The notes under the pieces were generated by a model. It saw only the letters and a list, made by a program, of their open reading frames with translations. It had not been told where the DNA came from and made no database searches. A stretch of DNA of 62,941 bases, counting the filler, from Anaerolineae bacterium (lineage in GTDB: Bacteria > Chloroflexota > Anaerolineae > Epilineales > Epilineaceae), in assembly GCA_029262755.1 (NCBI GenBank). It is 5 parts of 5 records of this genome, joined end to end, with 100 filler letters (N's around TTAATTAATTAA, not from the genome) between each part and the next. Parts side by side here need not be neighbours in the genome. Positions count along the whole stretch, not along the records: positions 51,900 to 62,941 come from JAJCYU010000066.1; 4 more parts are not named here. One strand, given 5' to 3'. This document shows positions 3,928 to 62,941 of the stretch, in pieces. Position 1 is the stretch's first letter. Every line of letters starts with the position of its first letter. Made by a program: the position numbers and the translations under genes.

Positions 3928-3952
3928 TCCGGGCTGAACTCCGCCGCGATTG

Positions 3953-3961
3953 TGCTATACT
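3953..3961 (+). promoter_or_regulatory. extended -10 promoter element
   Basis: TGCTATACT (TGnTAnnnT) in the intergenic region upstream of the CAP gene. Confidence 0.5.
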
Positions 3962-4073
3962 GGAACGTGGTAGCGGTGAACCGCTGTCAGGTCGCGTAAT
4001 CGTGGCCGAACTAATCACGCCTTCCACTCTTCACCGGCACGACGCGCTGGTGAACCCGTATGCGGAGATCGCC

Positions 4074-4829
4074 ATGACGAGCAACCTTCGGCGCTTGCAG
4101 GACCGAAAGGGCCTGTTCCTGTTGATCTTGCCGGTCTTCGTGGCCGTCGGCCTACTGGCCATGAGCCAGTCCGTGCTCTTGGCCTCCCCGCCCGGCACCC
4201 CGATCCTTCCGCAGGAACAGGAAGTGGTCGATCTGGTGAATGCGGAACGGGCCAAGGTCGGGCGTGCACCGTTGATCGTCAACTACTCGTTGATGGAGGC
4301 GGCGTGGTCGCACAACGAGTTCATGGTGCGCACCGGCGCCTTCTGTCACAACGGCTGCGGCGACGGCACCGTGCAGGAACGCATCGGCAAGACCGGCTAC
4401 CAGTGGTCCACCTTCGGCGAGAATATCGCCCGTGGCCAGCGTAGTCCCGTCGCGGTCATGAATGCATGGATGAACAGCACGGGCCACCGGCGCAACATCC
4501 TCAACGACAACTTCAAGGACATCGGCGTCGCGTACAACCCGAGCGGCCCAACGTGGACGCAGGTCTTCGGCGCCCCGCGGCCGGACTATCAGACGGTGAC
4601 GCCGCCCGGCTCCGGCCCGGCGCCGACACCCGAGCCGTGCAGCCTCGCCAGCGACGTCAACGGCGACGAGAAGGTCGATCAGAGCGATGTCGCCGTCGTC
4701 AGTGGTCATTTCTTGATGCGCCGCGGTGACGAGGGCTGGAACCCTGCGATGGACGTTGTCGTCGACGGTGTGGTCAACATCTACGACATCTTCCAGGTCG
4801 TCACGGACAAGGGCGCGAGCTGCCCCTAA
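4074..4829 (+). CDS. secreted CAP (SCP-like) domain protein with C-terminal dockerin-like domain
   Basis: VVDLVNAERAK, GENIARGQ, WMNSTGHRRNIL CAP motifs; Pro/Thr linker; DVNGDEKVDQSDV and DVVVDGVVNIYDI duplicated Ca-binding loops. Confidence 0.85.
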   Translation: MTSNLRRLQDRKGLFLLILPVFVAVGLLAMSQSVLLASPPGTPILPQEQEVVDLVNAERAKVGRAPLIVNYSLMEAAWSHNEFMVRTGAFCHNGCGDGTVQERIGKTGYQWSTFGENIARGQRSPVAVMNAWMNSTGHRRNILNDNFKDIGVAYNPSGPTWTQVFGAPRPDYQTVTPPGSGPAPTPEPCSLASDVNGDEKVDQSDVAVVSGHFLMRRGDEGWNPAMDVVVDGVVNIYDIFQVVTDKGASCP

Positions 4830-4866
4830 GCCGCTAGACGTACCATGTACGTTCGCATGAAATTTT

Positions 4867-4895
4867 CCGGCCCGGGCCTTCTGCGCCCGGGCCGG
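4867..4895 (+). terminator. GC-rich hairpin after the CAP gene
   Basis: CCGGCCCGGGC-7nt-GCCCGGGCCGG perfect 11-bp stem; weak U-tail. Confidence 0.5.
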
Positions 4896-4966
4896 CTTGC
4901 TTGAATCACCTGCGCCCGCCTGCTTCCGCCATCTCCCAGACGGGCCGCCCCTGCTCAGGATCGTCC

Positions 4967-6781
4967 ATGAACGGCCAAACCGAGGGCCAAGCGCAGCGCG
5001 TAGGCGTCTACGTAGCATGGCCCTATGCCAACGGACCGCTGCACGTCGGCCACATCGGCGGATCGCTGCTCCCACCGGACATCTTCGCCCGCTATCACCG
5101 ACTGCGCGGCAACGACGTGCTGATGGTGTCGGGCTCGGACACGCACGGAACCCCCATCGCGGTGCGCGCCGAGGACGAGGGCATCGAGCCCCAAGACGTC
5201 GTGCGCACGTGGCACGAGAGCTTCTTGCAGACCTTCGACGCCCTTGGCATCGGCTTCGACCTCTTCACGCACACGGACACGGCCAACCACCACCACGTCG
5301 CGCAGGACTTGTTCACGTTGCTGCGCGAGCGCGGCTATCTGGTGGTTCGATCGGAGCCACAGTTGTACTCGCCCAGCCAGGGTCGCTACCTCCCCGACCG
5401 CTTTGTAGAAGGAACATGCCCGCACTGCGACTATGGCGCGGCGCGCGGCGATCAATGCGATAACTGCGGCCGTCTGCTCAACGCCAAGGACCTCATCGAG
5501 CCCCGCGCCAAGGGCGGCGACGGCGAGGTGCTCGAGCAGGTGGAGCGCGAGCACTTCTTCTTGGATCTACCCGCCTTTGCCGAACAGCTTGAGCCGTGGC
5601 TGTCGGCACGCGAAGGCTGGCGTGCCGCCGTGCAAAACTCGAGCCTCGGTCTGATCAAGGAGGGCTTGGAACCGCGTGCGATCACGCGCGACATGGCCTG
5701 GGGCATCCCGGTACCCGTCGAGGGATGGGAAGACAAGGTGCTCTACGTCTGGTTTGAGGCCGTGATGGGCTACCTGTCGGCCACGAAGGAGCTCGCCACG
5801 CTACGCGGCGAGCCGGACCGGTGGCGGGATTGGTGGTACGAGCCGGCGGACGGCTACTACTTCATGGGCAAGGACAATACGATCTTCCACAGCATCCTCT
5901 GGCCCGCCATCCTCATGGGCGCCGCTGGATTCGGCGGCGGCGAGGACCATGACGAGGACGTGCCCAACTTACCGGCCGACGTCGTCGCCAACGAGTACGT
6001 GAACTTCGAGGGCGGATCGATGTCCACCAGCCGCAATATCGGGGTGTGGCTGCCCGATTACCTGGAACGCTACGATCCCGACCCGCTGCGCTACTTCCTC
6101 ACCATCAACGCCCCCGAGACGCGCGACGTCGATTTCTCGTGGAGCGACTTCGTGCGCGCCAACAACAACGAGCTATTGGCCACGTGGGGCAACCTGTGCA
6201 ACCGCGTGCTCAAGCTCACCGCCAGCAGTTGCGACGGCCGCGTGCCGGAGCCCGGCGCGCTCGGCCCTGAGGACGAAGCCGTCCTGGCCTCCACGCGCGC
6301 CGCCTTCGATGCGGTCGGTGAACGTATCGAGTCCCGGCGATTCAAATTGGGCTTGGCCGAGGCCATGGCCGTTGCGCATGAGGTCAACCGCTACTTGAAC
6401 GACCAGGCGCCGTGGAAGCAGATCAAGGACGATCCCGTGCGCGGACGGACCACCCTATACGTTGCCTTGCGCGCGATCGACGATCTGAAGATCATCTTGG
6501 CGCCGTTTCTGCCGCATATCAGCCAGATTGTGCACGAGCAGCTGGGCCACGAGGGCTCCCTGTTCGGCACGACGTCCATCGAGACCGTGGCGGACGAACG
6601 CGGCGAGCACCGTGTGTTGCGCTACGAGCACGCGGGCGCCGTCGGTCGCTGGGCACCGGGGTCACTGGCCGGCGGTCAGCTCCTTGGCGAGCCGGAGGCC
6701 ATCGTGCGCAAACTCGACGAGGCAGCGGTCCTGGAACGCGAGCTGGGCGATGTTCCGTCGGAATCGGAGAGCAGCACCTAA
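4967..6781 (+). CDS. metG: methionine--tRNA ligase (no C-terminal tRNA-binding appendix)
   Basis: AWPYANGPLHVGH, SGSDTHGTPI, CPHC/CDNC knuckle, YVWFEA, GKDN, SMSTSRN. Confidence 0.97.
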   Translation: MNGQTEGQAQRVGVYVAWPYANGPLHVGHIGGSLLPPDIFARYHRLRGNDVLMVSGSDTHGTPIAVRAEDEGIEPQDVVRTWHESFLQTFDALGIGFDLFTHTDTANHHHVAQDLFTLLRERGYLVVRSEPQLYSPSQGRYLPDRFVEGTCPHCDYGAARGDQCDNCGRLLNAKDLIEPRAKGGDGEVLEQVEREHFFLDLPAFAEQLEPWLSAREGWRAAVQNSSLGLIKEGLEPRAITRDMAWGIPVPVEGWEDKVLYVWFEAVMGYLSATKELATLRGEPDRWRDWWYEPADGYYFMGKDNTIFHSILWPAILMGAAGFGGGEDHDEDVPNLPADVVANEYVNFEGGSMSTSRNIGVWLPDYLERYDPDPLRYFLTINAPETRDVDFSWSDFVRANNNELLATWGNLCNRVLKLTASSCDGRVPEPGALGPEDEAVLASTRAAFDAVGERIESRRFKLGLAEAMAVAHEVNRYLNDQAPWKQIKDDPVRGRTTLYVALRAIDDLKIILAPFLPHISQIVHEQLGHEGSLFGTTSIETVADERGEHRVLRYEHAGAVGRWAPGSLAGGQLLGEPEAIVRKLDEAAVLERELGDVPSESESST

Positions 6782-6883
6782 TCTTGGCGCGACCGAGTAC
6801 GCTGTCTTGTGGCATAAAGCGGGACGCAACCCACCAGGCGTCGTACGGCGCTCCGAGCGAACGAACCATGTAGGGAGTGGACG

Positions 6884-7819
6884 ATGGCGCAGCCGGTGAT
6901 CTTGGTGCACGGCGGTGCGGGCACGCACCGAAGCTCGACCCGTTCCGAGAAGATTGCCGGCGTGCAGTCCGCCTCCGACGTCGGCTGGAGGGTGCTCGCC
7001 GACGGCGGGAGCGCGCTGGACGCCGTGGAAGCAGCAACGCGCGTGCTGGAGGACGATCCGCAATTCGACGCCGGGCGGGGCAGCTATCTCAACCTCGACG
7101 GCGAAGTGGAGTTGGACGCCATCATCATGGACGGCTCCCGTCAAGACTTCGGCGCTGTCGCGGCCGTCCCGCGGGTGCGCCACGCGATCAGCCTCGCACG
7201 CTGCGTGCTCGAGGAAAGCCCCCACGCGCTGCTCTCGGGTCCGGGCGCCGAGCGCTTCGCCCGCCAACGGGGCCTTACGGTGCCGTCGGCCGAGTTGATC
7301 GACCCGGAGCTCCTAGCGCGTTGGTACGACAGTCGGTGGCGCGGTGAAGCCCTCGCGGCCGCCGCCGATCCACGTGCCGGGCTCGCTAACGCGACGAAGG
7401 CAGAGCCGGCCGCAACGCCGGGCGACACCGTCGGCGCCGTCGCGCTCGACAGCGCCGGCGGCATCGCGGCGGCAACATCCACAGGCGGAACGAAGAACAA
7501 ATGGCCGGGCCGCATCGGCGATTCACCGATCGTCGGCAGCGGAGCATGGGCGGTCGACGGCGTCGGCGCTATCTCCTCGACCGGCCACGGCGAGTCCATC
7601 ATGCGCGTGTGCCTCGCCCACCGCATCGCGTTCCACTTGGAGGCCGGCATGGACGCTTCCGCCGCGGCCGCGGCCGGCATCGACCACCTGAGCGCGCTCA
7701 CCGGCGGCGAAGCGGGCGTTATCGTCGTGGACGCGGCGGGCCAGGTCGGTCTGGCATGGAACACCGACGGCATGCCCTACGCGTGGCGCACGACGCAGGA
7801 TCACGGCGCGGGGATCTAG
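6884..7819 (+). CDS. iaaA: isoaspartyl peptidase/L-asparaginase (Ntn hydrolase)
   Basis: ILVHGGAG, LEDDPQFDAGRGS, GDTVGAVALD autoprocessing Thr, TSTGG, GRIGDSP, STGHGE. Confidence 0.93.
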   Translation: MAQPVILVHGGAGTHRSSTRSEKIAGVQSASDVGWRVLADGGSALDAVEAATRVLEDDPQFDAGRGSYLNLDGEVELDAIIMDGSRQDFGAVAAVPRVRHAISLARCVLEESPHALLSGPGAERFARQRGLTVPSAELIDPELLARWYDSRWRGEALAAAADPRAGLANATKAEPAATPGDTVGAVALDSAGGIAAATSTGGTKNKWPGRIGDSPIVGSGAWAVDGVGAISSTGHGESIMRVCLAHRIAFHLEAGMDASAAAAAGIDHLSALTGGEAGVIVVDAAGQVGLAWNTDGMPYAWRTTQDHGAGI

Positions 7820-31007: not shown

Positions 31008-31093
31008 GGCGATCGTGACCGGCCGTCCTATTTCATTCTTGGACTGGGGTTGCAGATAAGGGCCGTCTCCGTCGTGGATCGGCCTCTGATATG

Positions 31094-31262
31094 GCCTTCG
31101 GGGCAGGGTGAGACGCGCGGCCGCGACCGCGATCGTCAATTCCCGACCGGCGGTATGGGGGACACGCCCCCGAGCCCGCGAGCCGCGGGCGGCGTTCGCG
31201 CCGCATCGTGGCAGACCCGGTGAGATGCCGGGGCCGACGGTACAGTCCGGATGGGAGAAGGC
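31094..31262 (+). ncRNA. FMN riboswitch (RFN element)
   Basis: CTTCGGGGCAGGGTGA...ATTCCCGACCGGCGGT...AGCCCGCGAG...GCAGACCCGGTGAGATGCCGGGGCCGACGGTACAGTCCGGATGGGAGAAG; P1 GCCTTC/GAAGGC; directly upstream of rib genes. Confidence 0.96.
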
Positions 31263-31325
31263 ATCGACCGTGCGTGGTCGCCCGTGATCGGCGACCTTTC
31301 GTTCGGCGTTGCACCCATGCCTTGC

Positions 31326-51799: not shown

Positions 51800-51899
51800 N
51801 NNNNNNNNNNNNNNNNNNNNNNNNNNNNNNNNNNNNNNNNNNNTTAATTAATTAANNNNNNNNNNNNNNNNNNNNNNNNNNNNNNNNNNNNNNNNNNNN
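51800..51899. other. artificial contig linker
   Basis: N run containing TTAATTAATTAA. Confidence 0.98.
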
Positions 51900-51900
51900 C

Positions 51901-52116
51901 CGCCCGCTCATCCACGAGGCCAAGCAGATGGAGACCGAGCTACGAAGTCCCGCCGCCGGCCTCGTCCGTACGGTCACCGCCACGCCCGGCGCCACGGTCA
52001 ACCAGGGCGACCCGCTCGTGGTGATCGATCCACCGACTGCGGTGGAGGCGGACGGGGACGGCGAAGGCGGGACGGATGCGGACGTGCGAGGCGATGCCGA
52101 CGGGGCCGCCGGATGA
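51901..52116 (+). CDS. biotin/lipoyl attachment domain protein, C-terminal fragment
   Basis: EAxxMETELRSPAAGLV...GATVNQGDPLVVI matches a biotinyl-domain C-terminal half. Confidence 0.75.
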   Translation, partial: RPLIHEAKQMETELRSPAAGLVRTVTATPGATVNQGDPLVVIDPPTAVEADGDGEGGTDADVRGDADGAAG

Positions 52117-52514
52117 GCGCCGGAATATGCTGGGAGATCGTCTTCGATGGCGGCAGCAAGGGCAATCCGGGCCGCGGCTACGGCTCATACCGCCTGCGCG
52201 AAACGGGCGGCGAATGGGAGCCGCCGGTGGAGCTGAACTTCGAGGGCCGACGAACCAACAACGAGGCCGAATACCTCTCGCTCACGGGCGCCTTGCGCGG
52301 CCTCGCGCAGCGCGTCGCCGACCCGAGCGCCGTGGCGATCACGGTCCGCGGCGACAGCAAGCTGGTACTGGAGCAACTGGCCGGCCGCTGGAAGGTCCGC
52401 ACCGCGAGCCTGCGCCCGTACTGGGCGGAGGCCAAGCAAGAGCTCGAGCGCTTCGGCCCGGTAACCTTCGCCTGGCACGGGCGTCAGAACTCGGTGGATC
52501 TGCTGGGGCACTAA
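52113..52514 (+). CDS. ribonuclease HI family protein
   Basis: FDGGSKGNPG, TNNEAEY, RGDSKLV..Q..G.WKV; ATGA overlap. Confidence 0.9.
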   Translation: MSAGICWEIVFDGGSKGNPGRGYGSYRLRETGGEWEPPVELNFEGRRTNNEAEYLSLTGALRGLAQRVADPSAVAITVRGDSKLVLEQLAGRWKVRTASLRPYWAEAKQELERFGPVTFAWHGRQNSVDLLGH

Positions 52515-52594
52515 CGGGGTTGGGGAGATGGTGTTCTTGGAGAGTGGGTCGGCCGCAAAGATTCTGGGTTAGACCGACCTGGCACGAGCCATTC

Positions 52595-52672
52595 GTGCAA
52601 CGCCCGATTACCGCATAAATACGCCGCGATGAAGCGATGTGCAACGGTCGTGCAACGGTAGCACGCTACGCT
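52595..52672 (+). promoter_or_regulatory. putative SARP-activated promoter 1
   Basis: GTGCAACGGT at 52639 and 52650 (11-bp period), GTGCAACG at 52595 (44 bp upstream, in phase); 9-mer followed by 8 nt and TACGCT (52667-52672). Confidence 0.7.
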
Positions 52673-52700
52673 TCGGTCACGAGTTGGCGTTGACGCCGAT

Positions 52701-52858
52701 CCGGGGCCATCCCCAAAGCGGCCTGAGATGCGACAATACGGGGACGGGGTAGGAATTCAATCCGGCGGGCATGACGATGCCCCACGGTTGGGCCGCAATA
52801 CGACGGAAGACCCGCGGGAGCGACGGCCCCGCGACGACAAACGAAGGGGTAGCGAGAA
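52701..52858 (+). ncRNA. conserved structured 5' leader, copy 1 (candidate cis-regulatory RNA)
   Basis: Aligns with 57021-57180; hairpins GGGCAT-GACG-ATGCCC and CGCGGG(A)GC-GACG-GCCCCGCG. Confidence 0.6.
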
Positions 52859-53296
52859 ATGATCAAGCGCATGATGGTTGCGGTTGCGATGGCAGCACTG
52901 GTGTTCGGGGTAGGTGCGGGGTTGGGGTACGGGAGTGCACATGCGGCGGAGAGTTCGGTCGGCACTTATGGAGAATCGATGCAAGAGCGGAATGTGTTGC
53001 AAAATGACCCATGCGTCGATCCTACCGGCCGGCCGATTGCCCCAACCGGGGAAGCGCCTCCCTGCCAGGGGTCGTGGCAACTGTACGTCGCGAAGAGGTT
53101 GAATGGCGAACAGAACTGGCAGTTGGCAGTAGCGAGCGATTTCTGCCCGGAGCCGCCACCGGGCTGGAGCTCGTGTACATGGCAGCCGACTAACGACACG
53201 TTCTGGGTTTTCGATCCGTTTAAGGATTACTGCTGGCACGTTGAGTGGGTATGCTGCAACGGCACTGGCATCCCCGTCTGCGGCTCCGTGAACTGA
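52859..53296 (+). CDS. secreted 8-Cys mini-protein A
   Basis: Signal peptide ending AHA-A; AAGGGG RBS; paralogous to 57181-57648 (GRPI.PTG, AVASDFCP.PP.GW..C, DP.K.YCW..EW.CC). Confidence 0.88.
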   Translation: MIKRMMVAVAMAALVFGVGAGLGYGSAHAAESSVGTYGESMQERNVLQNDPCVDPTGRPIAPTGEAPPCQGSWQLYVAKRLNGEQNWQLAVASDFCPEPPPGWSSCTWQPTNDTFWVFDPFKDYCWHVEWVCCNGTGIPVCGSVN

Positions 53297-53369
53297 TTTC
53301 CGACAGGCTAAGAGGCTCGCTCAGGCATCAGCCGGATTGGTAGGTTAGATTCGTAGGGCTGGATGAAGC

Positions 53370-53408
53370 AGCAGACGCGGTGGCTTTGGCCACCGCGTCT
53401 GCTATTTT
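53370..53408 (+). terminator. perfect 15-bp hairpin between mini-protein A and regulator 1
   Basis: AGCAGACGCGGTGGC-TTTG-GCCACCGCGTCTGCT followed by ATTTT. Confidence 0.75.
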
Positions 53409-53457
53409 CAAGACATTGGAAACTCCTTCAGATCCCCCGAGTTCACCAAACTACTGA

Positions 53458-56400
53458 GTGGAGCGCCTTCTGTTGCAACTCCATGTCTTCGGTCCACTTG
53501 CTGCCGTGTGCAACGGAGCTGAGGTCTCCCTGCCGCTACGCAACCACAGCCGACACCTCTTAGCTCGTCTGGCCATTGACGTAGGAGTTTGGCTGGATCG
53601 CGACATGTTGGCATTGGAGATGTGGCCTAGTCTCGAGCGTTCACTCGGCCGACAGAAGTTGAGGCGTCATCTATTCGATGTCCGGGCCTGGCTAAACAAA
53701 CACTGTGGCGACGGGGTACTGATGGCTCAGCGGGAAAAGGTGAGGCTTGTCACCAATCCGGCACTCCAAATCGATCTCTTTGAGTCTCCGTTGTATGCTG
53801 ACGGAGCCTTGGGAGGGTCTCAGGTCCATGAGTGGCTCCTTGGGACAAACATCACACTATTGGAAGGCATCGACGAATTGTGGGTGCAGCCTCATCGTAC
53901 ACGTATACGTCGGAAGATCGACGAGATTCTTCCGAAGGGAATCGACGACTTGGTTGCCGACGATCGACTTTCTGAAGCCTATTATCTTGCGCAACACTGG
54001 TGCGAATTCGAACCTACAAGCGAGCGCAGATACCGAGTGCTCATGTGGCTCTCGAGTCGACTAGGAGACACTGGTGCCCTCAGGAGATGGTTCGCGAAGT
54101 GCCAGGATGAGCTTGCACGTGAACATGGGATTGCCGTTTCTGCCCGGACCGAGGCGTTTTTCAAGTCCATCGTGCAGGGAGTCGTTCCAGCTTGGGAAAA
54201 CCTTCATTCGGCCGGATTCGAGGCGGAACCACATGGACTAAATCGCGGCTTGCCCTCCTGGAAAGGTGAGCTGTTCGGCCGGCGCGAGACCTTGAACGCC
54301 ATTCAGCAACTCCTATCCCGATCAAACCGAGTCACCATTGTTGGCACGGGCGGGGTAGGCAAGACTGCGTTGGCAACGTGTCTCGCCCAGAACGTAGTTG
54401 ATCGATACAGGGATGGTGTGAACTGGGTCGACCTTGCTGGGATCGATGACCCGAAACTACTAGCCCAGTTTATCGTCGAATCAATCGGGATCGATGCTGT
54501 GCCAGGGAGGGAACCCGTGGTACAACTGCGTTCCTACCTAGCTCAACATCGCGTACTATTTGTGCTCGACAACTGCGAACATCTCCTAGATGCCATCAAG
54601 ACCCTAGTTGAACGGATTTGGGACGGCGATGTATCAGCCGACTTGCTTGCTACAAGCAGAATTCCAATCGGATTTGAATACGAACATGTATGGAATCTGG
54701 AGCCACTGTCTTGCGAAAGCACCACGCCAGGAATCCTTGGGCCTGCGCTCCAGTTGCTTATCGAACGTGTGCGGCAATCACGCAACCCCGACGAGTTTCA
54801 CGACTCAGAGTTGCCGGCAGCATTGCGAGTATCGGAGCTACTCGATGGAATTCCATTGGCGATGGAACTCGCCGCTGCCCGGTGCGAGTTCCTTGACCTA
54901 CATCAGGTTGCTGACATGCTGGCGCAGTATTTCAATGTCCTAGTTGACTCTCGTCGTGACCGAGCGACGCGCCAAAGTACGATGTGGTCCGCCATCGATT
55001 GGAGCTGGCAACTTCTCGAACAACAACATCGGGACTTGCTTACCACAACTGCCGTGTTCCGAGGCGGTTTCGACACGAGGGCGGCCGTGGAGTTAGAGCG
55101 AGCCCGTCAAGAGGGTCGATTGCCCGAGTGGTCGGACTCGCCACCAAGGTCCCGTTCCGAACGTGAGCAGTATCGTGAAGTGGCTGACCAATTGGAATGG
55201 CTGGTACGCAATTCGTTGATCGCCAAGGTAACAGATGCCCGCCAGAGAGTCCGATTTCGGCTTTTGGAGCCCATTCGTCATTTTGCAGAAGCCAAAATGG
55301 TCGCAGAGAAACGCGATCGAGCCGCTTCGATGGGGCATATCGAGTACTTCGCACAGCTAGCAATAGCAGCGCGGGGAGGATTGTCAGGTGAAGAACGACC
55401 GCGCTGGAACGAACTGCTAAAGTTGGAGCACGATAATCTCCGGCACGCCATGGCCGGAATGCGAATCCAAGAAGACGCGCAGCAGCGATTGCAAGTAGGG
55501 ACGAGTTTGTTTCGATATTGGTATGCAAGTGGACACTTTGGGTGGGAACTTGATTGGTTGCGCGCTAGTGTCGCGCAGCGAGAGCCATTTGGCCCGGACG
55601 AAACCGTTGCCGAGGCGCTCCACCTGATAGGGATCTGTCACTATGCCAAAGGAGAGTGCGTTGTCGCGCTAGAGTTCTTCTCGCGGAGCAGCGAACAGTA
55701 CTCTGCACTCCAGGATGATGCATCGATTGTTCGTTCGATGGTCATGTGCGCGTATTGCCACACTCTATTGGGTGAGATCGGGAAAGCGCGCAGCGATGCG
55801 AATCGCGCACTAACGCTTGCAAACGAAGATCCTGCGCTAAGCATACAAGCGCTTGATGCACTTGGGTACATAGACCGAATATCAGGACATTACACGCAGT
55901 CTCGGGAGAGTATGATGCGCGTACTCGACCTCCATCGGGATTCCGATAGCACTCCCGACGAGCAGTATTCAACGATCTCGAACCTCGGGTGGATAGCGTG
56001 GAGTACCGGTGCGCTCGACGAGGCAACGGATTGGCTGCACGAAGCGCGGATGATCGCGGAGACCATCGACAGTAAGCCTATGCGGCTTGAGGCAACGGTC
56101 GCGCAGATCGAAGTCCTAGTCTGCTACGGCCGATTGGAAGAGGCAGCCTTGGCTGCCCGTGAAGGTGTGGAGCTCGCGAAGGATCTCGGTGATGGTTTCG
56201 GCGAGGCGAACGCTCTTACAATGCTCGGGATCATCGAACTCGCGAAAGAACGGTGGCCAACTGCGCGACTCTACCTGCGCCGCGCGGATTCTGGATTCCG
56301 GGCTGTGGAAGCCATTAGCGAACTGGCCACCGTTCTCTGCTATGCGATGGAGCTCACGGATCGCATGGGCGATGAGACCGTTGGGCTCAATGCCAGGACC

Positions 56401-56859
56401 GACGATGATCAGTTGCCTGCGATCGAGCACGACCCCCACGCCCAAGCCATGCTGCACCGCAGCTTCGCATGGCGCGCCTGGACCGCCGGCGATCACGAGA
56501 CCGGCCTCCGGACGATGGTCGAAGCCCTCCGCATGCACGTTGACTTGGGCGAGCGCTTTGAGGCGCTTCGCTGCTTCGAAGCCGTCGGTTCGCTGCTCGC
56601 TCGACTTGGAAGAGGCCGTCTCGCCGAAGGCGCCCTCGCCGCGGCCGCCGCACTTCGCGACGAGATCGGCGCGCGCCCGTGGCCCGTGGACGTGACCGCA
56701 GTCGCCGCTGCGCGCGAGGCGATTCGGGAGGCGGCCATGGAGACGCACGACTTAGACGCCGACGATGAGTTGGAGGCGCTGCCAGTTGGAGCGGAGGACG
56801 TGGTCGCGTGGTTGGAACGGGAGCTCGAGTACGACGGAGCTTCGCCTGCTGAGAACTGA
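53458..56859 (+). CDS. AfsR/SARP-like STAND regulator 1 (wHTH-BTAD-NB-ARC-TPR)
   Basis: LHVFGPL...LDRDMLALEMWP wHTH, BTAD region, GTGGVGKT, VLDNCEH, LDGIPLAMELAA, C-terminal TPR-like helices. Confidence 0.9.
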   Translation: MERLLLQLHVFGPLAAVCNGAEVSLPLRNHSRHLLARLAIDVGVWLDRDMLALEMWPSLERSLGRQKLRRHLFDVRAWLNKHCGDGVLMAQREKVRLVTNPALQIDLFESPLYADGALGGSQVHEWLLGTNITLLEGIDELWVQPHRTRIRRKIDEILPKGIDDLVADDRLSEAYYLAQHWCEFEPTSERRYRVLMWLSSRLGDTGALRRWFAKCQDELAREHGIAVSARTEAFFKSIVQGVVPAWENLHSAGFEAEPHGLNRGLPSWKGELFGRRETLNAIQQLLSRSNRVTIVGTGGVGKTALATCLAQNVVDRYRDGVNWVDLAGIDDPKLLAQFIVESIGIDAVPGREPVVQLRSYLAQHRVLFVLDNCEHLLDAIKTLVERIWDGDVSADLLATSRIPIGFEYEHVWNLEPLSCESTTPGILGPALQLLIERVRQSRNPDEFHDSELPAALRVSELLDGIPLAMELAAARCEFLDLHQVADMLAQYFNVLVDSRRDRATRQSTMWSAIDWSWQLLEQQHRDLLTTTAVFRGGFDTRAAVELERARQEGRLPEWSDSPPRSRSEREQYREVADQLEWLVRNSLIAKVTDARQRVRFRLLEPIRHFAEAKMVAEKRDRAASMGHIEYFAQLAIAARGGLSGEERPRWNELLKLEHDNLRHAMAGMRIQEDAQQRLQVGTSLFRYWYASGHFGWELDWLRASVAQREPFGPDETVAEALHLIGICHYAKGECVVALEFFSRSSEQYSALQDDASIVRSMVMCAYCHTLLGEIGKARSDANRALTLANEDPALSIQALDALGYIDRISGHYTQSRESMMRVLDLHRDSDSTPDEQYSTISNLGWIAWSTGALDEATDWLHEARMIAETIDSKPMRLEATVAQIEVLVCYGRLEEAALAAREGVELAKDLGDGFGEANALTMLGIIELAKERWPTARLYLRRADSGFRAVEAISELATVLCYAMELTDRMGDETVGLNARTDDDQLPAIEHDPHAQAMLHRSFAWRAWTAGDHETGLRTMVEALRMHVDLGERFEALRCFEAVGSLLARLGRGRLAEGALAAAAALRDEIGARPWPVDVTAVAAAREAIREAAMETHDLDADDELEALPVGAEDVVAWLERELEYDGASPAEN

Positions 56860-56958
56860 CACGGAGTGTCCCGCACATGCGATTTCCAGCATTTCTGGAC
56901 CTGCGACCCCACACGCGACACCTAAAGATACGCCATAGAGACCCTGCGCGGGACAAAT

Positions 56959-56981
56959 TTGCAACGCAAGCCGGGTAGGCT
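56959..56981 (+). promoter_or_regulatory. putative SARP-activated promoter 2
   Basis: TTGCAACGC (56959-56967), 8 nt, TAGGCT (56976-56981); same geometry as promoter 1. Confidence 0.6.
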
Positions 56982-57020
56982 TCCTCCAGAAGTGCGCGGC
57001 GGAGAGAGTCGCGATATGGA

Positions 57021-57180
57021 CCGGGGCCATCCCCTGAGCGGCCGAACGGACGACAGAGCAGGGGACTGGGGTAGGGAAATGGACCGGTGGGCGTGACGGC
57101 GCCTCACGGTTGGGCCGCAAGAAATTCGACAGGCAGCGGGCGCGACGGCTCCGCGGCAACGTCAAGGGGTGGTGGTGGAA
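57021..57180 (+). ncRNA. conserved structured 5' leader, copy 2
   Basis: Shares CCGGGGCCATCCCC, GCGGCC, GGGGTAGG, CACGGTTGGGCCGCAA, GCGACGGC and AAGGGGT with copy 1; hairpins GGGCGT-GACG-GCGCCT and GCGGG(C)GC-GACG-GCTCCGC. Confidence 0.6.
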
Positions 57181-57648
57181 ATGAATACGATGAAGATGAT
57201 CGCGACCGGGTTCGCGGTATTGATGTTCGGGGTTGCGCTGGGACTGGGCCAAAGCAGTGTGGCTGCCGCGGAGATTTCGTCGGCCTCGCTGGCGATCCCC
57301 GCTGTCGGCTTCGAAGTTCAGGGCGCCTGCAACAACCCAGAGGGGCGGCCGATCGTTCCGACGGGAGATCCCGAGGACTGCACACCACCACCGGGAGAAG
57401 GATTGTACCGGCTGCACGTGTGGAAGAGCTTGGACAACGGTGCTAGCTGGATGCCGGCGGTCGCGAGCGACTTTTGTCCTTCACCGCCCTCTGGATGGGC
57501 GAACTGCGTAAACTTCGGACCCGGAGGCAGCGGGGTGAACGCACCGATCACGGTGTACGATCCGCTCAAAGAATACTGTTGGTACGCCGAATGGACGTGC
57601 TGCGGTGCGCAGATAGGTAGCCCGTATTGTATGGGGGAGACGACCTAG
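57181..57648 (+). CDS. secreted 8-Cys mini-protein B
   Basis: Signal peptide ending VAA-A; all 8 Cys align with protein A; ATG 57181 aligns with the copy-1 start (GAAATG). Confidence 0.88.
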   Translation: MNTMKMIATGFAVLMFGVALGLGQSSVAAAEISSASLAIPAVGFEVQGACNNPEGRPIVPTGDPEDCTPPPGEGLYRLHVWKSLDNGASWMPAVASDFCPSPPSGWANCVNFGPGGSGVNAPITVYDPLKEYCWYAEWTCCGAQIGSPYCMGETT

Positions 57649-57718
57649 AGCGGTCACGTACTCCACGTTGGAATTGTGGATAGCTAGGAACTACCTGGAC
57701 GCGATTCGGGTGAGCTAG

Positions 57719-57754
57719 AGTAAGGTGCGGTGGCCGTGGCCACCGCACCTTACT
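57719..57754 (+). terminator. perfect 16-bp hairpin between mini-protein B and regulator 2
   Basis: AGTAAGGTGCGGTGGC-CGTG-GCCACCGCACCTTACT; same GCGGTGGC/GCCACCGC core as 53370. Confidence 0.7.
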
Positions 57755-57805
57755 GTTCGTTGTGTCGGGCGCTTCGTGACGGGCGGCCGAAACGAGCCGA
57801 TTGGA

Positions 57806-60800
57806 TTGCGGAGCGAAACACTGGTTCGCCTTCAGGTCTTGGGGCCAATGGCCGTCGTTTATCAGGGAGCGACCGTGGTGCTTCCCAAGCGTCGCGACAG
57901 TCGGGCCCTGTTGGCTGCTCTCGCGATCGAGTCCAACCACTGGTTGGAGCGGCAGACGTTGGCGGCACGACTTTGGCCCGCCGACGAGCCTCGAAGCGCA
58001 CGCAGCAAGCTACGGCGGCACATCTCGGACGTGCGTGCCTGGCTTGCGACGGTGGAGGCGGCAGACCATCTTGAGACCATTCAAGGCCGAGTGCGATTGT
58101 GCGTAGGTCCCGGATTCCGAGTTGACCTCGGGGACGCGCCCCTCGGGTTGGACGGTCCCATTGCGGCCCAAGAAATCGTAGGTTGGCTAAGCGATCACGA
58201 TATTCGACTCCTCCCTGATTTGGAAGGCGCGTGGGTTGAGACGGCGAGGCAGCATTTCGAGCAGCAGCTAGATGCAGTTCTCCCACGGGCCATTGACGAG
58301 TTGGTCGCGCGACAGGACATTGTCAGCGCACTAGCCATCGCCACCCAATGGCACAGGCTAGACAGGACCGCGGAGCAGCGCTACCAGGCACTCATCTGGC
58401 TGACTGCAAGCCTGGGTGACTTTGAAGAGTCAGCACGCTGGTTTGTTCGGGCGAGCGAGGCCCTGGCTAGTTCGCTGGCGCTTGAAGTTTCGCATGCATC
58501 GAAGGATCTCCACAACGCGATCCAACGTGGACTAGAGCCGCCCTGGACCCCGTTGCGTCCGAGGAGTGAGGAGTTCCCAGATCGTGCCAATGGTCCGGGT
58601 CTTCCTGCATTGCAAGGGGAGCTGTTCGGCAGAGAGCAAGACTTGGAGCGAGCGCGATTACGCTTATCACGCGTCGGACGCATGACCGTTGTGGGTACCG
58701 GAGGCGTTGGCAAGACCTCGCTTGCATTGCGCTTGGCACATCGGATGAGCACCCGCTATCCGGATGGCGTGGGGTGGGTAGATCTCTCGGCACTTAGCGA
58801 GCCTCGACTCGTTGCGCAACATGTCCTCGAGTCGTTTGGCCTGGAAACACCGCCCGGCCAGGATGAGCGAGTACGGTTATCCTCGTTCGTCATGCAGCAC
58901 CGCGCGCTGATCGTGCTCGACAATTGCGAGCACTTAGTGGGCCACGTCCAAGAATTGGTGAATTGGGTGTGGGCACCCGGTGCTACGGTTCACTTGCTTG
59001 CCACAAGCAGAATTGCTGTCGGGTATGGCTCTGAGGAAGTATTGAACCTAGAGCCATTGCCTTGGGAGTCTGGAGATGTAGGGCGGATCGGCCCTGCTCA
59101 GGAACTTCTGCTAGCGCGAGTACGCATGGCGCGTGGAGGTAAAGAGGCTGGAAAATCTGAGCGCGCGGCAGCCGCCCGCGTCGCTGAGCGCCTCGAGGGT
59201 ATCCCGCTGGCTCTCGAATTGGCCGCCGCGCGAACGACCTTCACCGGCCTAGATCAGGTCGCGGAGCTGCTCGATCGATACTTCGAGGTGCTCGTAGACC
59301 GACGACGTGATCGTGACGATCGCCAAAGAACCATGTGGTCAGCAATCGACTGGAGTTGGCGCCTACTCGAGGCCGAACAGCAGCGGCTCCTTGCCGTGAC
59401 AGGCGTGTTTCGCGGAAGCTTCGACACATCGGCAGCGGTCGAGATCGCCGGAGCCCTGAGAACGGGGCGCACTCCACGCTGGACGGGCGAGGCGCCGGCC
59501 ATGCGTGAGGAACGCGAAGCGGCGAAGCAGGTTGCGAGTGGCCTGGACACTTTGACCGCACATTCGATGGTCACACGGATCGTTGGGTCCGATGGGGCGT
59601 TGCGCTATCGAGTTCTGGAACCGATCCGAAGATTTGCCGTTGCCCGACTGGAAGAGGCGGGCCAGTTGGAGATCACGACGCGTGGCCATGCTGCGTACTT
59701 CGCAGAGTTGTGCATCGCGGCCCGTGCTGGAATGGCTAGTGAGCAGCGACCTACGTGGCACGCACGACTAGATCTCGAATTGGATAACATTCGCCACGCC
59801 ATGGTGGGCCTGGGTCTCCCAGAAGCACTCGATCGCAGATTGCAAGTAGGAACGAGCTTGTTCCGCTATTGGTACGCTAAAGGACTCTTCCACTGGGAGT
59901 TTGACTGGCTGCGCGAAAGTGTCGTGCTCGCTCAAAGGGTTGCTTCGGTACCTGATGAGACCATTGCTTCCGGGCTTCACATGCTCGGCGCCGTCGAGTA
60001 CGCAAAGGGCCAATTTTCGGAAGCGGTTGAGTTCTTCAATCGCAGCATCGACCAATCCAGAATCCTTGGCGATGATCATGCCCTTTCCAAGAGTCTGGTA
60101 ATGCGCGCCTACTGCCGGACCTTCGTTGGTCAGACAGTCCAGGCGAGAGAGGATGCCGAGGAGGCCGAACGTAGAGCTGGGAAAAACCTCGGCCTACGGA
60201 TTCAGGCTTTGGATGCTCAAGGATTCATCGACCGCAGACAGGGTCGATACGCAAACGCCCGTGCGAGCATGATGCGAGCGCTACAGCTTCATCGGGATTC
60301 AGACAGTCCCCCTGACGAGCAATTCGCCACCATCTCAAATTTGGGATGGACAGCATGGCGCACAGGGGAAATGGACGAGGCATTAGACTGGTTTCGCGAG
60401 GCACGGATGGTGGCCGAGACAGTTGACAGCAACCCGATGCGCATCGAGGCCGCAGCAGGCGAAGCCGAAGCGAATCTTTGCCTTTGTAGGCTCAAAGATG
60501 CGGATGGCCTGGCGCGCGAGGCTTTGGAGTTGTCGCGCGAGGTCGGGGACGTGTTCGGTGAAGCAAATGCCCTCACGGTGCTCGGATTGCTCGAATTCGC
60601 TCAAGAAAACTGGACGAAGGCGCGCGTCTTGTTTCGCCGAGCGGAGGTCGCATATCGAGGAATTGAGGGGGGAGGCGGGTTGGCGACAACCCGTTGCTAT
60701 CGAGCCGAGTTGGCAGATCGTATTGGGGACGTAGCGACTTGGCACTCGGGCGAATTGGACAGGCAGACGTTGGCTGTAGAAATCGACGACCCTCACGCTG

Positions 60801-61195
60801 CTGCCAAGATTCTGCGACGCGACGGCTGGATGTCCCATTTCGCGGGTCATGAGGACGCTGCAGTCCAGAGATTGATCGAAAGCCTCCGCATGCACATCGA
60901 CCTCGGCGAACGCTTCGAGACCGCCCGCTGTTTCGAAGCGGTCGGCCGGCTGCTTGCGCGCAGCGCACGTCCCCGCCTTGCCGCAGGCGCCCTGGACGCC
61001 GGCGCGGCCTTGCGCGACGAGATCGGTGCTCGACCGTGGCCCGCGGACGTGTCCGCCGTTGCAGAGGCGCGCGAAACGATTGACAGCCTATTGTCCGACG
61101 ACGCCGGAAGTCGTCTCGACGACGCGTCGTCGCCGGCTCCGGTCGGCGCAGAGGCCGTAGTGGCATGGCTCGAAACGGCGTCGGCGCGATCTTGA
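57806..61195 (+). CDS. AfsR/SARP-like STAND regulator 2 (wHTH-BTAD-NB-ARC-TPR)
   Basis: Full-length paralogue of regulator 1: LQVLGPM, GTGGVGKT, VLDNCEH, LEGIPLALELAA, RLQVGTSLFRYWYA; start uncertain (TTG 57806 assumed). Confidence 0.9.
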   Translation: MRSETLVRLQVLGPMAVVYQGATVVLPKRRDSRALLAALAIESNHWLERQTLAARLWPADEPRSARSKLRRHISDVRAWLATVEAADHLETIQGRVRLCVGPGFRVDLGDAPLGLDGPIAAQEIVGWLSDHDIRLLPDLEGAWVETARQHFEQQLDAVLPRAIDELVARQDIVSALAIATQWHRLDRTAEQRYQALIWLTASLGDFEESARWFVRASEALASSLALEVSHASKDLHNAIQRGLEPPWTPLRPRSEEFPDRANGPGLPALQGELFGREQDLERARLRLSRVGRMTVVGTGGVGKTSLALRLAHRMSTRYPDGVGWVDLSALSEPRLVAQHVLESFGLETPPGQDERVRLSSFVMQHRALIVLDNCEHLVGHVQELVNWVWAPGATVHLLATSRIAVGYGSEEVLNLEPLPWESGDVGRIGPAQELLLARVRMARGGKEAGKSERAAAARVAERLEGIPLALELAAARTTFTGLDQVAELLDRYFEVLVDRRRDRDDRQRTMWSAIDWSWRLLEAEQQRLLAVTGVFRGSFDTSAAVEIAGALRTGRTPRWTGEAPAMREEREAAKQVASGLDTLTAHSMVTRIVGSDGALRYRVLEPIRRFAVARLEEAGQLEITTRGHAAYFAELCIAARAGMASEQRPTWHARLDLELDNIRHAMVGLGLPEALDRRLQVGTSLFRYWYAKGLFHWEFDWLRESVVLAQRVASVPDETIASGLHMLGAVEYAKGQFSEAVEFFNRSIDQSRILGDDHALSKSLVMRAYCRTFVGQTVQAREDAEEAERRAGKNLGLRIQALDAQGFIDRRQGRYANARASMMRALQLHRDSDSPPDEQFATISNLGWTAWRTGEMDEALDWFREARMVAETVDSNPMRIEAAAGEAEANLCLCRLKDADGLAREALELSREVGDVFGEANALTVLGLLEFAQENWTKARVLFRRAEVAYRGIEGGGGLATTRCYRAELADRIGDVATWHSGELDRQTLAVEIDDPHAAAKILRRDGWMSHFAGHEDAAVQRLIESLRMHIDLGERFETARCFEAVGRLLARSARPRLAAGALDAGAALRDEIGARPWPADVSAVAEARETIDSLLSDDAGSRLDDASSPAPVGAEAVVAWLETASARS

Positions 61196-61199
61196 AGGC

Positions 61200-61343
61200 C
61201 TGACCTTTTTGCTTTCCCCTCGACGTGACGGCGGACCCCTCCAGCGCTGTGTGCGCCTCAGGGGCCCGCCCGTCTTTCACTCCAAATCCAAATCAAAGCT
61301 TCAAGCCGCGTTCGTCTGTGTTGCCTCCCGCTCCCGTTTCCAT
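61200..61343 (-). ncRNA. candidate small RNA or leaderless 16-aa peptide transcript
   Basis: Downstream of promoter 3; hairpin 61227-61274 has G-U pairs on the minus strand but A-C mismatches on the plus strand; ATG at 61343 opens METGAGGNTDERGLKL. Confidence 0.4.
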
Positions 61344-61349
61344 GATTGG

Positions 61350-61383
61350 ATACTACGGCCCCACCGTTGCAAGAGCGTCGCAT
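61350..61383 (-). promoter_or_regulatory. putative SARP-activated promoter 3 (divergent from regulator 3)
   Basis: Minus strand: ATGCGACGC (61383-61375), TTGCAACGG (61372-61364, 11-bp period), 8 nt, TAGTAT (61355-61350). Confidence 0.65.
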
Positions 61384-61498
61384 CGCGGAACTGCGGCGCT
61401 CCCGTAGAGCGCGGGACGACGATTCGAACCCTGCTACCATCCTCGAATCGATCCTCGTCGGTTTGTGCCCGGCGGGGAAGCTTTCGCACGGAGACTGG

Positions 61499-62941
61499 AT
61501 GGCCAAGTACCCAGGAGCAGGATCGGGAGAAAGTTCGGGCGATGGAGCGGACAAGGCTCCAATTCGCATCCAAGTCCTCGGACCGTTCCAGGTCTACGTC
61601 GGCGACGAGGCGTTGCCGCCGCCGCGCCGATCGCAAACACTGCGCGTGCTTGCCTACTTGCTGCTCCACCCGGAGAAGCCGCTCGAACGGGCTGCGTTGG
61701 CGGAGACGTTGTGGCCCGACGAAGATGGCGCCAAGGCGCGCTTCAACCTTCGTCACGCGATCCATGCCATCAAGGGCTATCTGCCCAAATCGGACGACGG
61801 CGACGAATGGATCGAGTCCGATCGCCAGACGGTGCGCTGGACGCCGGATGATCGCGTGCGGCTCGATATCGACCAGCTCGCGCACGGGCGCGAGATCGCG
61901 GAGGGCGATACGCCGGCGGTAGCCCTTGTAGAGCCCTTGCAGCAAGCAGCGGATGGCTACGGCGGCCCCTTCTTGCCGGCGATCGAGGACGACTGGGCGC
62001 GAAACGTGCGTGCCAGGGCGGCGGAGGACCTCACGATCGTGCTGGAGCGCCTGCTGCGGTTGCACGAGCGAGATGGCCGAACCGACGCCGCGGTGGAAGT
62101 GGGACGGCGATTGCTTGCGCACGATGGCACCCGCGAGACCGCGTACCGGGCGATGATGCGCGTGCATGCCGGGCGTGGCGACCGGGCGGCGGCGCTGCGG
62201 CTCTATCAGGCTTGCGTGGAGCTGCTGCGCGATGAGATGGGCGTGGAGCCCTCCGAGGAAACGGAGGCGCTCGCGGAGTCCATACGGCAAGGCGACGAGG
62301 TGGCGCACGTCGACGAGGCGGCCACGGGCAGTGCAACGACCGCCGGAACAGGGACTCACGCTATCGCACCGCCGTCATGGCCTTGGCCGCTGATCGACCA
62401 GATGGGCCGACGTCAGGCGTTGGCCGCGTGTATCGCGCGATCGCGCCTCGTGACGGTCACGGGGCCCGCGGGCGTCGGCAAGAGCCGGCTCGCCGCGGCC
62501 GTCGCGACCGACGCTGCGGGGATGGACGATCCCGAAGGGCAGGTAGTCTGGTGCGATCTTGAATTCGAGTTTCCCGACGGAGGCAACGTGCTTGCAGCCA
62601 TCGCGACAGCCGCGGGCCTACCTGCGGACGCCGGTGATCCTGTTCGCGTTCTGGCGTCGGTCGTAGAGGACGACCCCTGGTTGATCGTCCTCGACGACGC
62701 CGATGCCGTGCTCGACGAGATCGTACCGGCGTGGAACGCGCTCTCGCGCGCCATGCCTGCGTTGCGCGTTGTGATCACCAGCCGCGAGGCGTTGCGGATT
62801 CAGGACGAAGAGGTCTTCCACGTTGCGCGACTCGATGAACGGGATGGCGATGCACCACCGCTCGCACGCGGGCCCGAATTGGAGAGCGCCTCGCTGCTGG
62901 ATGCCGTGGTACGGGAGTTGGCGCCGGCCAAGATGCCGACG
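61499..62941 (+). CDS. AfsR/SARP-like STAND regulator 3 (3' truncated; absent from ORF track)
   Basis: GGAGA RBS, ATG 61499; hand translation gives IRIQVLGPF, RVLAYLLLHPEKPLERAALAETLWPD, RETAYRAMMR, GPAGVGKS, LIVLDDAD, VITSRE; open to window end. Confidence 0.9.
   Translation, partial: MAKYPGAGSGESSGDGADKAPIRIQVLGPFQVYVGDEALPPPRRSQTLRVLAYLLLHPEKPLERAALAETLWPDEDGAKARFNLRHAIHAIKGYLPKSDDGDEWIESDRQTVRWTPDDRVRLDIDQLAHGREIAEGDTPAVALVEPLQQAADGYGGPFLPAIEDDWARNVRARAAEDLTIVLERLLRLHERDGRTDAAVEVGRRLLAHDGTRETAYRAMMRVHAGRGDRAAALRLYQACVELLRDEMGVEPSEETEALAESIRQGDEVAHVDEAATGSATTAGTGTHAIAPPSWPWPLIDQMGRRQALAACIARSRLVTVTGPAGVGKSRLAAAVATDAAGMDDPEGQVVWCDLEFEFPDGGNVLAAIATAAGLPADAGDPVRVLASVVEDDPWLIVLDDADAVLDEIVPAWNALSRAMPALRVVITSREALRIQDEEVFHVARLDERDGDAPPLARGPELESASLLDAVVRELAPAKMPT

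Follow-up and report, generated by a model that had tools for sequence, protein, structure and literature searches.

Why have two stretches of some 160 nt, each lying in front of a small gene in the genome of an uncultured Anaerolineae bacterium (GenBank assembly GCA_029262755.1), remained alike between dissimilar flanks, and do they act as RNA? The DNA analysed here (the window, 62,941 nt in all) comes from a metagenome-assembled genome of 5.06 Mb (67% G+C, 84% complete) and consists of several contigs joined by runs of N, for example at 51847-51900; neighbourhood across these joins is not real, and translations of open reading frames (ORFs) give X there. Both stretches belong to one contig, C66 (window positions 51900-62941, 11,042 nt), on which the same order of elements, namely a leader, a gene for a small secreted Cys-rich protein, a hairpin and a gene for an AfsR-like regulator, is found twice in tandem. 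We propose, with confidence that is evenly divided, that the conserved leader is a lineage-specific structured RNA of the 5' untranslated region (UTR) that acts in cis.

Judged from their divergence, the two modules are ancient tandem duplicates, since the small proteins are 40% identical (61/152), the regulators 49% identical (545/1118), and the third codon positions of the regulators are saturated, with 445 of 660 sites differing between the copies. In a global alignment of the modules, identity amounts to 55-57% in the coding sequences (small CDS 245/428, regulator CDS 1854/3378) and 45-50% in the spacers (upstream spacer 74/149, spacer after the small ORF 71/159), and it reaches 65% in the leader (104/159) and 70-73% in the leader core. 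This core of about 135 nt, at 52701-52832 in copy 1 and 57021-57154 in copy 2, is built of exact blocks alternating with fully diverged linkers (only 5 of the 17 alignment columns 101-117 are identical). The preliminary description of the locus had reported twin conserved stretches at 52701-52858 and 57021-57180 with exact blocks of 14 and 16 nt, and both blocks are borne out: CCGGGGCCATCCCC occurs in the whole window at 52701 and 57021 only, and CACGGTTGGGCCGCAA at 52783 and 57105 only. Its remark that the flanks are dissimilar has to be softened, because a gap-free, promoter-like stretch, TGCAACG-N9-TA(C/G)GCTTC, lies upstream of both leaders and is common to the two copies, so that the flanks are not wholly dissimilar. 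The mismatches within the leader have no codon periodicity (counts 6, 5, 3 and 11, 7, 11) and a short upstream ORF (uORF) of copy 1 is not kept in copy 2, and from this pattern the leader block is non-coding. Conservation goes beyond what neutral divergence would leave, and it indicates purifying selection on the leader: neutral retention is excluded because the spacers are only 45-50% identical and third codon positions are saturated, and recent gene conversion is disfavoured because the mosaic of exact blocks and diverged linkers, together with a compensatory base pair described below, differs from the long uniform identity that conversion would leave. No leader variants were seen in DNA reads over 52500-57700, a region fully covered by one of three runs, possibly the source run.

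A predicted promoter ahead of each leader is the main reason to regard the block as RNA. Across the genome, TGCAACG is followed by TAnnnT at a spacing of 9 nt in 19 places (the motif TGCAACG-N9-TAnnnT), whereas any other spacing between 0 and 29 gives 0-4 occurrences and the reversed control gives 4; common to the 19 sites is a further element, (C/T)G(G/C)(G/A)AC, 11 nt upstream of TGCAACG, so that the motif consists of two direct repeats one helical turn apart. In copy 1 (plus strand), direct repeats TGCAACG at 52640-52646 and 52651-52657, with an 11-bp period, precede the putative -10 hexamer TACGCT (52667-52672), and this repeat register recurs at 17 other TGCAACG-N9-TAnnnT sites in the genome. 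In copy 2, also on the plus strand, GGGACA (56950-56955) and TGCAACG (56960-56966) stand in the copy-1 register before the putative hexamer TAGGCT (56976-56981). When transcription start sites are placed at the A seven bases past each hexamer, starts are predicted at A52679 and A56988, and the predicted 5' UTRs measure 180 nt (52679-52858) and 193 nt (56988-57180), respectively. The conserved block would then begin at about +23 in copy 1 and about +34 in copy 2, the 11-nt difference in length falling before the block. The leader block is thus predicted to be transcribed, within the 5' UTR and downstream of a promoter; a start downstream of the conserved blocks, which the preliminary description had named as a ground for abandoning the RNA interpretation, is not what these positions predict. 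No sigma-70-like site was found inside the leaders.

The geometry of the motif recalls that of SARP targets, for which PMC10936776 gives direct repeats at intervals of 11 or 22 bp and a gap of 8 bp between the 3' repeat and the -10 element. Both copies, like most of the 19 sites, carry direct repeats in an 11-bp register, and the distance of the 3' repeat from the hexamer is comparable, at 9 nt from TGCAACG to TAnnnT (8 nt when the repeat is taken as GCAACGG). The full form of this promoter class, (C/T)G(G/C)(G/A)AC-N5-TGCAACG-N9-TAnnnT, is found mostly upstream of genes for signal-peptide or envelope proteins: most of the 19 sites are followed, at a distance of 0-300 nt, by an ORF that has a signal peptide or membrane segment, and among 15 downstream proteins compared with Pfam, seven matched (LVIVD repeats, VWA, SdrD-B-like, regulator-propeller, Band 7) and eight had no match. 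One of the 19 sites, on contig C115, falls inside an apparent coding sequence that we take to be ThiG-like from a translation read by eye, and this site is probably a chance occurrence. An AfsR-like gene adjoins four of the 19 sites in the module arrangement (three on C66 and one on C253), and one further site (C308) has such a gene at a distance of about 4 kb, on the opposite strand. Because only four of the 19 sites adjoin such a gene, the activator of the motif promoters may be one of the AfsR-like regulators or another winged-helix protein, and the 19 sites taken together resemble a secreted-protein regulon controlled by a winged-helix activator. In the family's 16 other genomes the signal of the exact motif is far less pronounced, with 37 matches against 24 in the control. 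Other promoter types fit poorly. In a sigma-54 promoter, whose consensus has a GG-to-GC spacing of 10 nt, the spacing here would be 8-9 nt and the enriched TAnnnT would be left unexplained, and an ECF-type or plain sigma-70 -35 element would entail spacers of 21 or 10 nt. In the whole window TGCAACG occurs 16 times, against a mean of 10.3 in shuffles, and it clusters on C66, the last 11 kb of the window, where 9 of the 16 matches fall (52596-62338); a third copy, at 52596, precedes the copy-1 repeats by 44 nt (4 x 11). On the minus strand a match to the full motif, TGCAACG-N9-TAGTAT, runs from 61371 to 61350 in the spacer before a third regulator gene and points left into the 3' end of regulator 2, where an antisense or small transcript is possible.

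Four helices are proposed for the plus strand of the leader. In copy 1 these are P0 (52703-52714), a hairpin GGGG-CCAT-CCCC within the 14-nt exact block at 52701-52714; P1, a long-range helix between GCGGCC (52718-52723) and GGCCGC (52791-52796) that encloses a G-rich stretch (52740-52753) and P2; P2 (52762-52787), with a CCG/CGG base, a GGGCAT/ATGCCC stem and a GACG loop at 52773-52776; and P3 (52814-52832), GCGGG-A-GC/GCCCCGC, with a second GACG loop at 52822-52825. Their counterparts in copy 2 are P0 at 57023-57034, P1 at 57038-57043 with 57113-57118, P2 at 57084-57109 (loop 57095-57098) and P3 at 57136-57154 (loop 57144-57147). The comparisons on which the preliminary description relied hold when the two copies are aligned. 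In the first hairpin GGGCAT-GACG-ATGCCC (52767-52782) is replaced by GGGCGT-GACG-GCGCCT (57089-57104), with one double change from A-U to G-C and two changes to G-U; in the second, GCGGGAGC-GACG-GCCCCGC (52814-52832) and GCGGGCGC-GACG-GCTCCGC (57136-57154) retain the stem, the GACG loop and a single bulged base (A or C), one G-C pair being changed to G-U; and the GCGGCC/GGCCGC pairing is possible, and invariant, in both. Of the 26 proposed pairs, one is compensatory, three have one-sided changes to G-U and 22 do not vary. All five substitutions among the 52 stem positions keep pairing, and pairing is found in 100% of cells, against 42-58% when the partners are slid by 1-3 columns.

The signal for a conserved structure is also specific to one strand. 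The RNAalifold consensus is -49.6 kcal/mol on the plus strand and -39.5 kcal/mol on the minus strand, where the first hairpin is shortened and the second is lost; the G-U pairs are valid on the plus strand only. Against alignments in which identical, different and gapped columns were shuffled separately, the plus strand had z -3.90 (none of 300 shuffles as low) and the minus strand z -0.81 (63 of 300). When the same test was applied across the whole duplicated module, in 43 windows of 150 columns on both strands, 5 of 86 values fell below -3, and these belonged to the leader (plus strand, -3.1) and to two windows with the hairpins that follow the small ORFs (both strands). P2 is kept in all single-sequence folds, and P1 is part of the minimum free energy (MFE) structure of copy 1. 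Taken together, the sequences support P2 best, then P3 and then P1, and P0 is uninformative on pairing because all its pairs are invariant.

Several observations weigh against a structured leader and lower our confidence in it. The single-sequence folds are not more stable than dinucleotide shuffles (z +0.80 and -0.13), and the MFE structure of the predicted full UTR of copy 2 keeps P2 and replaces P1 and P3. Only two copies are available, they are paralogues, and 22 of their 26 pairs never vary; a two-row alignment leaves the pair shuffle uninformative (270 of 500 shuffles attain the observed value), the column shuffle ignores dinucleotides, and the structure was picked on the same two sequences on which it was scored. 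Runs of G and C permit many alternative conserved helices. No terminator-like site was found in either leader, and neither has a clear helix that sequesters the Shine-Dalgarno (SD) sequence. Finally, conserved blocks outside the helices are just as compatible with a DNA site, and the neighbouring genes encode DNA-binding regulators.

This last point leads to an alternative that we consider unlikely, in which the conserved blocks are an operator at the DNA level that binds the adjacent AfsR-like regulators or another transcription factor and the hairpins are incidental palindromes; lying downstream of the promoter, it would work as a roadblock for repression or provide auxiliary sites for an activator. 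Three AfsR-like DNA-binding regulators are encoded on the same 11-kb contig, the loops and linkers are conserved in sequence, as protein sites would be, and the promoter repeat reappears in the leaders in variant form (GCGAC, GGGAC, GCAAC). GACG exceeds its expected count of 1.6 in both copies, with 5 occurrences in copy 1 (P 0.02) and 3 in copy 2 (P 0.22), but this is a weak enrichment, and two repeat pairs that stand 11 nt apart in copy 1 become spaced by 12 and 14 nt in copy 2. A position-weight scan detected no second promoter-type site inside the leaders. The substitutions themselves speak for RNA rather than for an operator, in that the stem changes creating G-U pairs degrade DNA palindromes and keep RNA stems, and the structure signal is confined to the plus strand.

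It is more doubtful still that the leader has no regulatory structure at all and is a remnant of duplication or gene conversion, or is constrained by something other than folding, such as a ribosome standby site or an unstructured binding region. The near-zero z-scores of the single-sequence folds would be expected on this account, the whole leader is only 65% identical as against 55-57% for the coding sequences, and no homologue was found that would show long-term maintenance; but the poor conservation of the spacers and the saturation of third codon positions exclude neutral retention, and a mosaic of exact blocks and diverged linkers with a compensatory pair is unlike recent conversion. Control of the main gene through translation of a leader-peptide uORF is extremely improbable, because the 44-codon ORF of copy 1 (52728-52862), which ends in ATGA and overlaps the main start codon, has no equivalent of at least 25 codons in the corresponding frame ending at the start codon of copy 2, which weighs heavily against it, and because the mismatches lack a third-position excess and the aligned peptides are wholly diverged across the variable linker.

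Relatives of the leader were sought at several depths. Rfam offers no known family for either leader: cmscan with Rfam 15 over 52300-57700 gave no leader match even at E<=10, and the two chance-level matches, mir-6827 at 53362-53412 (E 6.3) and Yar_3 at 55510-55586 (E 7.5), both lie outside the leaders. The only match in the whole window that reached its gathering score was an FMN riboswitch (RF00050) on another contig, at 31090-31266 (84.9 bits, gathering score 66.2). When the leader was compared by BLAST with 61 genomes, its own and those of 60 relatives, only chance matches of 22-32 nt were returned. A covariance model, R1, was built from the two copies and scores them at 161-169 bits. Among 17 family genomes nothing beyond the true copies exceeded 19.5 bits, with weak matches in eight other genomes (E 0.015-0.084, 16.8-19.5 bits); among 35 genomes of the order there was nothing at E<=0.01; and among 151 genomes of the class two matches of 22-23 bits (E 0.002) were discarded, since both are antisense within long ORFs. 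Upstream of five regulator homologues in the family no leader was detected, the best of the 59 matches listed reaching 10.4 bits with filters off. A scan of a metagenome collection for a three-block pattern listed 10 stretches, none of which fits R1 at E<=1 or has further similarity. In everything searched, the element consists of these two paralogues of one genome only; R1 would miss distant relatives because it was built from two sequences. The covariance-model search proposed in the preliminary description thus added no homologue, and for this reason covariation is limited to one compensatory pair and three one-sided G-U changes. A literature search on candidate structured RNAs in Chloroflexi yielded known motif surveys only. 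The motifs of those surveys are presumably deposited in Rfam.

If the leader does act as a structured RNA, we infer the following course, from the transcription start and action at the RNA level to every later step. The small secreted-protein genes would be transcribed from activator-dependent promoters with two 11-bp-spaced (T/C)G(C/G)(A/G)AC repeats, the 3' repeat standing 8-9 bp from a TAnGCT -10 hexamer, and transcription would yield a 5' UTR of 180 or 193 nt holding the conserved core of about 135 nt. The core would fold in cis on the plus strand into P0, then P1 around the G-rich stretch and P2, then P3, with P2 and P3 each displaying a GACG loop. Its most likely role would be to control translation initiation or the lifetime of the small-protein message. 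The elements conserved in loops or single strands (GACG, GGGGUAGG and CACGGUUGG) would make contact with a trans factor or take part in tertiary structure. Because the two GACG loops are identical and single-stranded blocks are conserved, the sequences suggest a trans-acting partner; a protein would be the likelier one and a small ligand less so.

What the preliminary description had added on a mechanism fared less well than its account of the helices. A regulatory leader remains consistent with a non-coding block without an Rfam family, with strand-specific structure and a predicted promoter upstream, whereas the translational switch is unsupported. Pairing of the 5' CCATCCCC with the ribosome-binding site, on which the switch was to depend, extends over only 4-5 bp in copy 1 and its extent is not conserved; likewise, the 5' CCAUCCCC pairs with the SD over 4-5 bp in copy 1 and over a longer but bulged helix in copy 2. 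In ensemble folds the SD region has a mean unpaired probability of 0.59 in copy 1 and 0.53 in copy 2. An anti-SD switch is possible but unsupported. In a conserved alternative helix of 7 bp, which takes in no part of the SD, the 3' arm of P3 pairs with the 5' CGGGGCC, and this helix could be the basis of a conformational switch; a specific switch is not readable from two sequences because G and C runs allow many alternative helices. The suggested pseudoknot finds no partner for the GACG loop common to both copies, CGUC being present in copy 2 only, and a G-quadruplex was rejected since the third G-run of copy 1 is only GG.

The proteins downstream of the leaders were described as mini-proteins. 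The leaders do precede small genes, but the products are signal-peptide proteins of 145 and 155 residues: the first, a Cys-rich orphan, is encoded at 52859-53296, and the second, also Cys-rich, at 57181-57648 from ATG 57181 (the longest ORF starts at GTG 57169), both on the plus strand. Neither belongs to a Pfam or NCBIfam family. A word search of 5.8 billion proteins returned the query itself only (one of three candidates), and a profile search of 1.84 billion representatives recovered the two proteins of the window and no credible relative outside the contig, its three further matches (E 5e-4 to 1e-3) lying in proteins of 888-974 amino acids (aa). Among genome contigs one locus gave a 21-residue match (E 2e-4) that is probably due to chance. 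The AlphaFold2 model of a small protein has a mean predicted local distance difference test (pLDDT) score of 49.6.

Each small ORF is followed by a hairpin on the plus strand. After the first, a 15-bp terminator-like hairpin with TTTT lies at 53370-53408; after the second, a 16-bp hairpin lies at 57719-57754, sharing with copy 1 the core GCGGTGGC...GCCACCGC in a stem that is otherwise different. The structure is kept with many changed pairs (alifold z -6.7 to -13.3, both strands, two windows), and in each module the hairpin that separates the small gene from the regulator gene is probably a terminator or attenuator. Because the copy-2 hairpin overlaps the start of the longest ORF of regulator 2, that start is probably annotated too far upstream and the true one probably lies further downstream.

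The regulator genes that complete the modules lie on the plus strand at 53458-56859 (regulator 1, 1133 aa) and 57725-61195 (regulator 2, up to 1156 aa). Both proteins have an NB-ARC domain (34.0 and 34.2 bits, cutoff 23.5) followed by TPR repeats (TPR_12, 52.6 and 78.2 bits, cutoff 30.1), the NOD ATPase-TPR order of large SARPs, and for the N-terminal OmpR-type winged helix and BTAD domain of large SARPs the matches stay below cutoff: BTAD in regulator 1 only (20.1 bits against 22.1) and Trans_reg_C in regulator 2 only (25.4 against 26.2). AfsR is the best NCBIfam model, and its positions 25-557 align to residues 30-564 of regulator 2 at 72.6 bits; the regulators are AfsR-like in architecture and not AfsR, because they score 70-73 bits against a cutoff of 1430. 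They had no match among PDB sequences, and their identity to homologues from other genomes does not exceed about 30%. A third AfsR-like regulator gene, from about 61346 (61346-62941), is truncated by the contig end and has no small-protein gene or leader ahead of it; at the other end of C66 there is an RNase-H-like ORF (52113-52514). Of five full-length regulator homologues in the same family, four (L075, L076, L077 and L079, in genomes G013, G007, G015 and G005) have an unrelated signal-peptide gene immediately upstream on the same strand, and the fifth (G001) has another SARP-like gene there, a sign that secreted proteins may be repeatedly paired with STAND regulators. Within the same genome, contig C253 of G000 carries on its minus strand (3678-7487) a motif promoter, a gene for a 166-aa signal-peptide protein and an AfsR-like regulator gene (29% identity to regulator 1), with a short leader of about 45-65 nt; its small protein has a faint likeness to those of the window in the motif C..P.RPI.P...PPC (BLASTP E 6e-4 in one comparison, hhalign probability 0.2%).

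If the proposal is correct, a new structured leader family precedes orphan secreted proteins beside AfsR-like signal-transducing regulators, and such modules would combine activator-dependent transcription with a checkpoint at the RNA level. The most far-reaching form of the proposal, a new class of leader RNA that responds to a ligand or a protein, is built on a three-helix core with twin GACG loops and adds a post-transcriptional layer to a lineage-specific secreted-protein regulon with SARP-type promoters, paired here with AfsR-like STAND regulators outside actinomycetes, seems to us distinctly improbable. The reach of the leader is limited to two paralogous copies in one metagenome-assembled genome of an uncultured organism, with no clue to a ligand. 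The promoter motif is perhaps of more practical use, as it marks about 18 genes for secreted or envelope proteins and predicts transcription starts and a regulon in an organism that is uncultured.

The closest known system is AfsR-afsS of Streptomyces, in which a large SARP activates the small gene beside it by way of a 22-bp box that overlaps the -35 region and comprises two direct repeats of 11 bp. Here, too, a large SARP-like NB-ARC/TPR regulator adjoins a small gene, and two repeats with an 11-bp period, the 3' one about 8 bp from a weak -10 element, agree with the geometry given in PMC10936776. The likeness ends at several points: the regulators fail the equivalog membership of AfsR by the NCBIfam score given above, the small proteins are signal-peptide Cys-rich orphans of 145-155 aa unlike afsS, the small gene comes first, and the promoter type also precedes about 15 genes that do not adjoin such a regulator. 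No long conserved structured 5' UTR is described for afsS in the part of PMC10936776 consulted, whereas the leaders here have a predicted one.

Two classes of leader RNA offer further comparisons. Like Rfam Cis-reg entries and orphan riboswitch candidates, the leaders are conserved 5' UTR elements of about 135 nt with several stems, in which loops and junctions are kept and linkers vary; unlike them, they are represented by two paralogues in one genome rather than by a broad distribution, match nothing in Rfam 15, and have neither a terminator nor a clear SD-sequestering platform. The downstream genes give no ligand clue because their function is unassigned. CsrA/Rsm targets carry GGA motifs in hairpin loops and at the SD. 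The loops here are both GACG, not GGA, the SD is not in a hairpin loop, and no candidate RNA-binding protein was identified for the leaders; the resemblance to such protein-titrated leaders is that two hairpins carry the same 4-nt loop, and by analogy the twin loops suggest a dimeric or repeated RNA-binding partner. If functional, the leader would form a new family within the structured cis-regulatory leaders.

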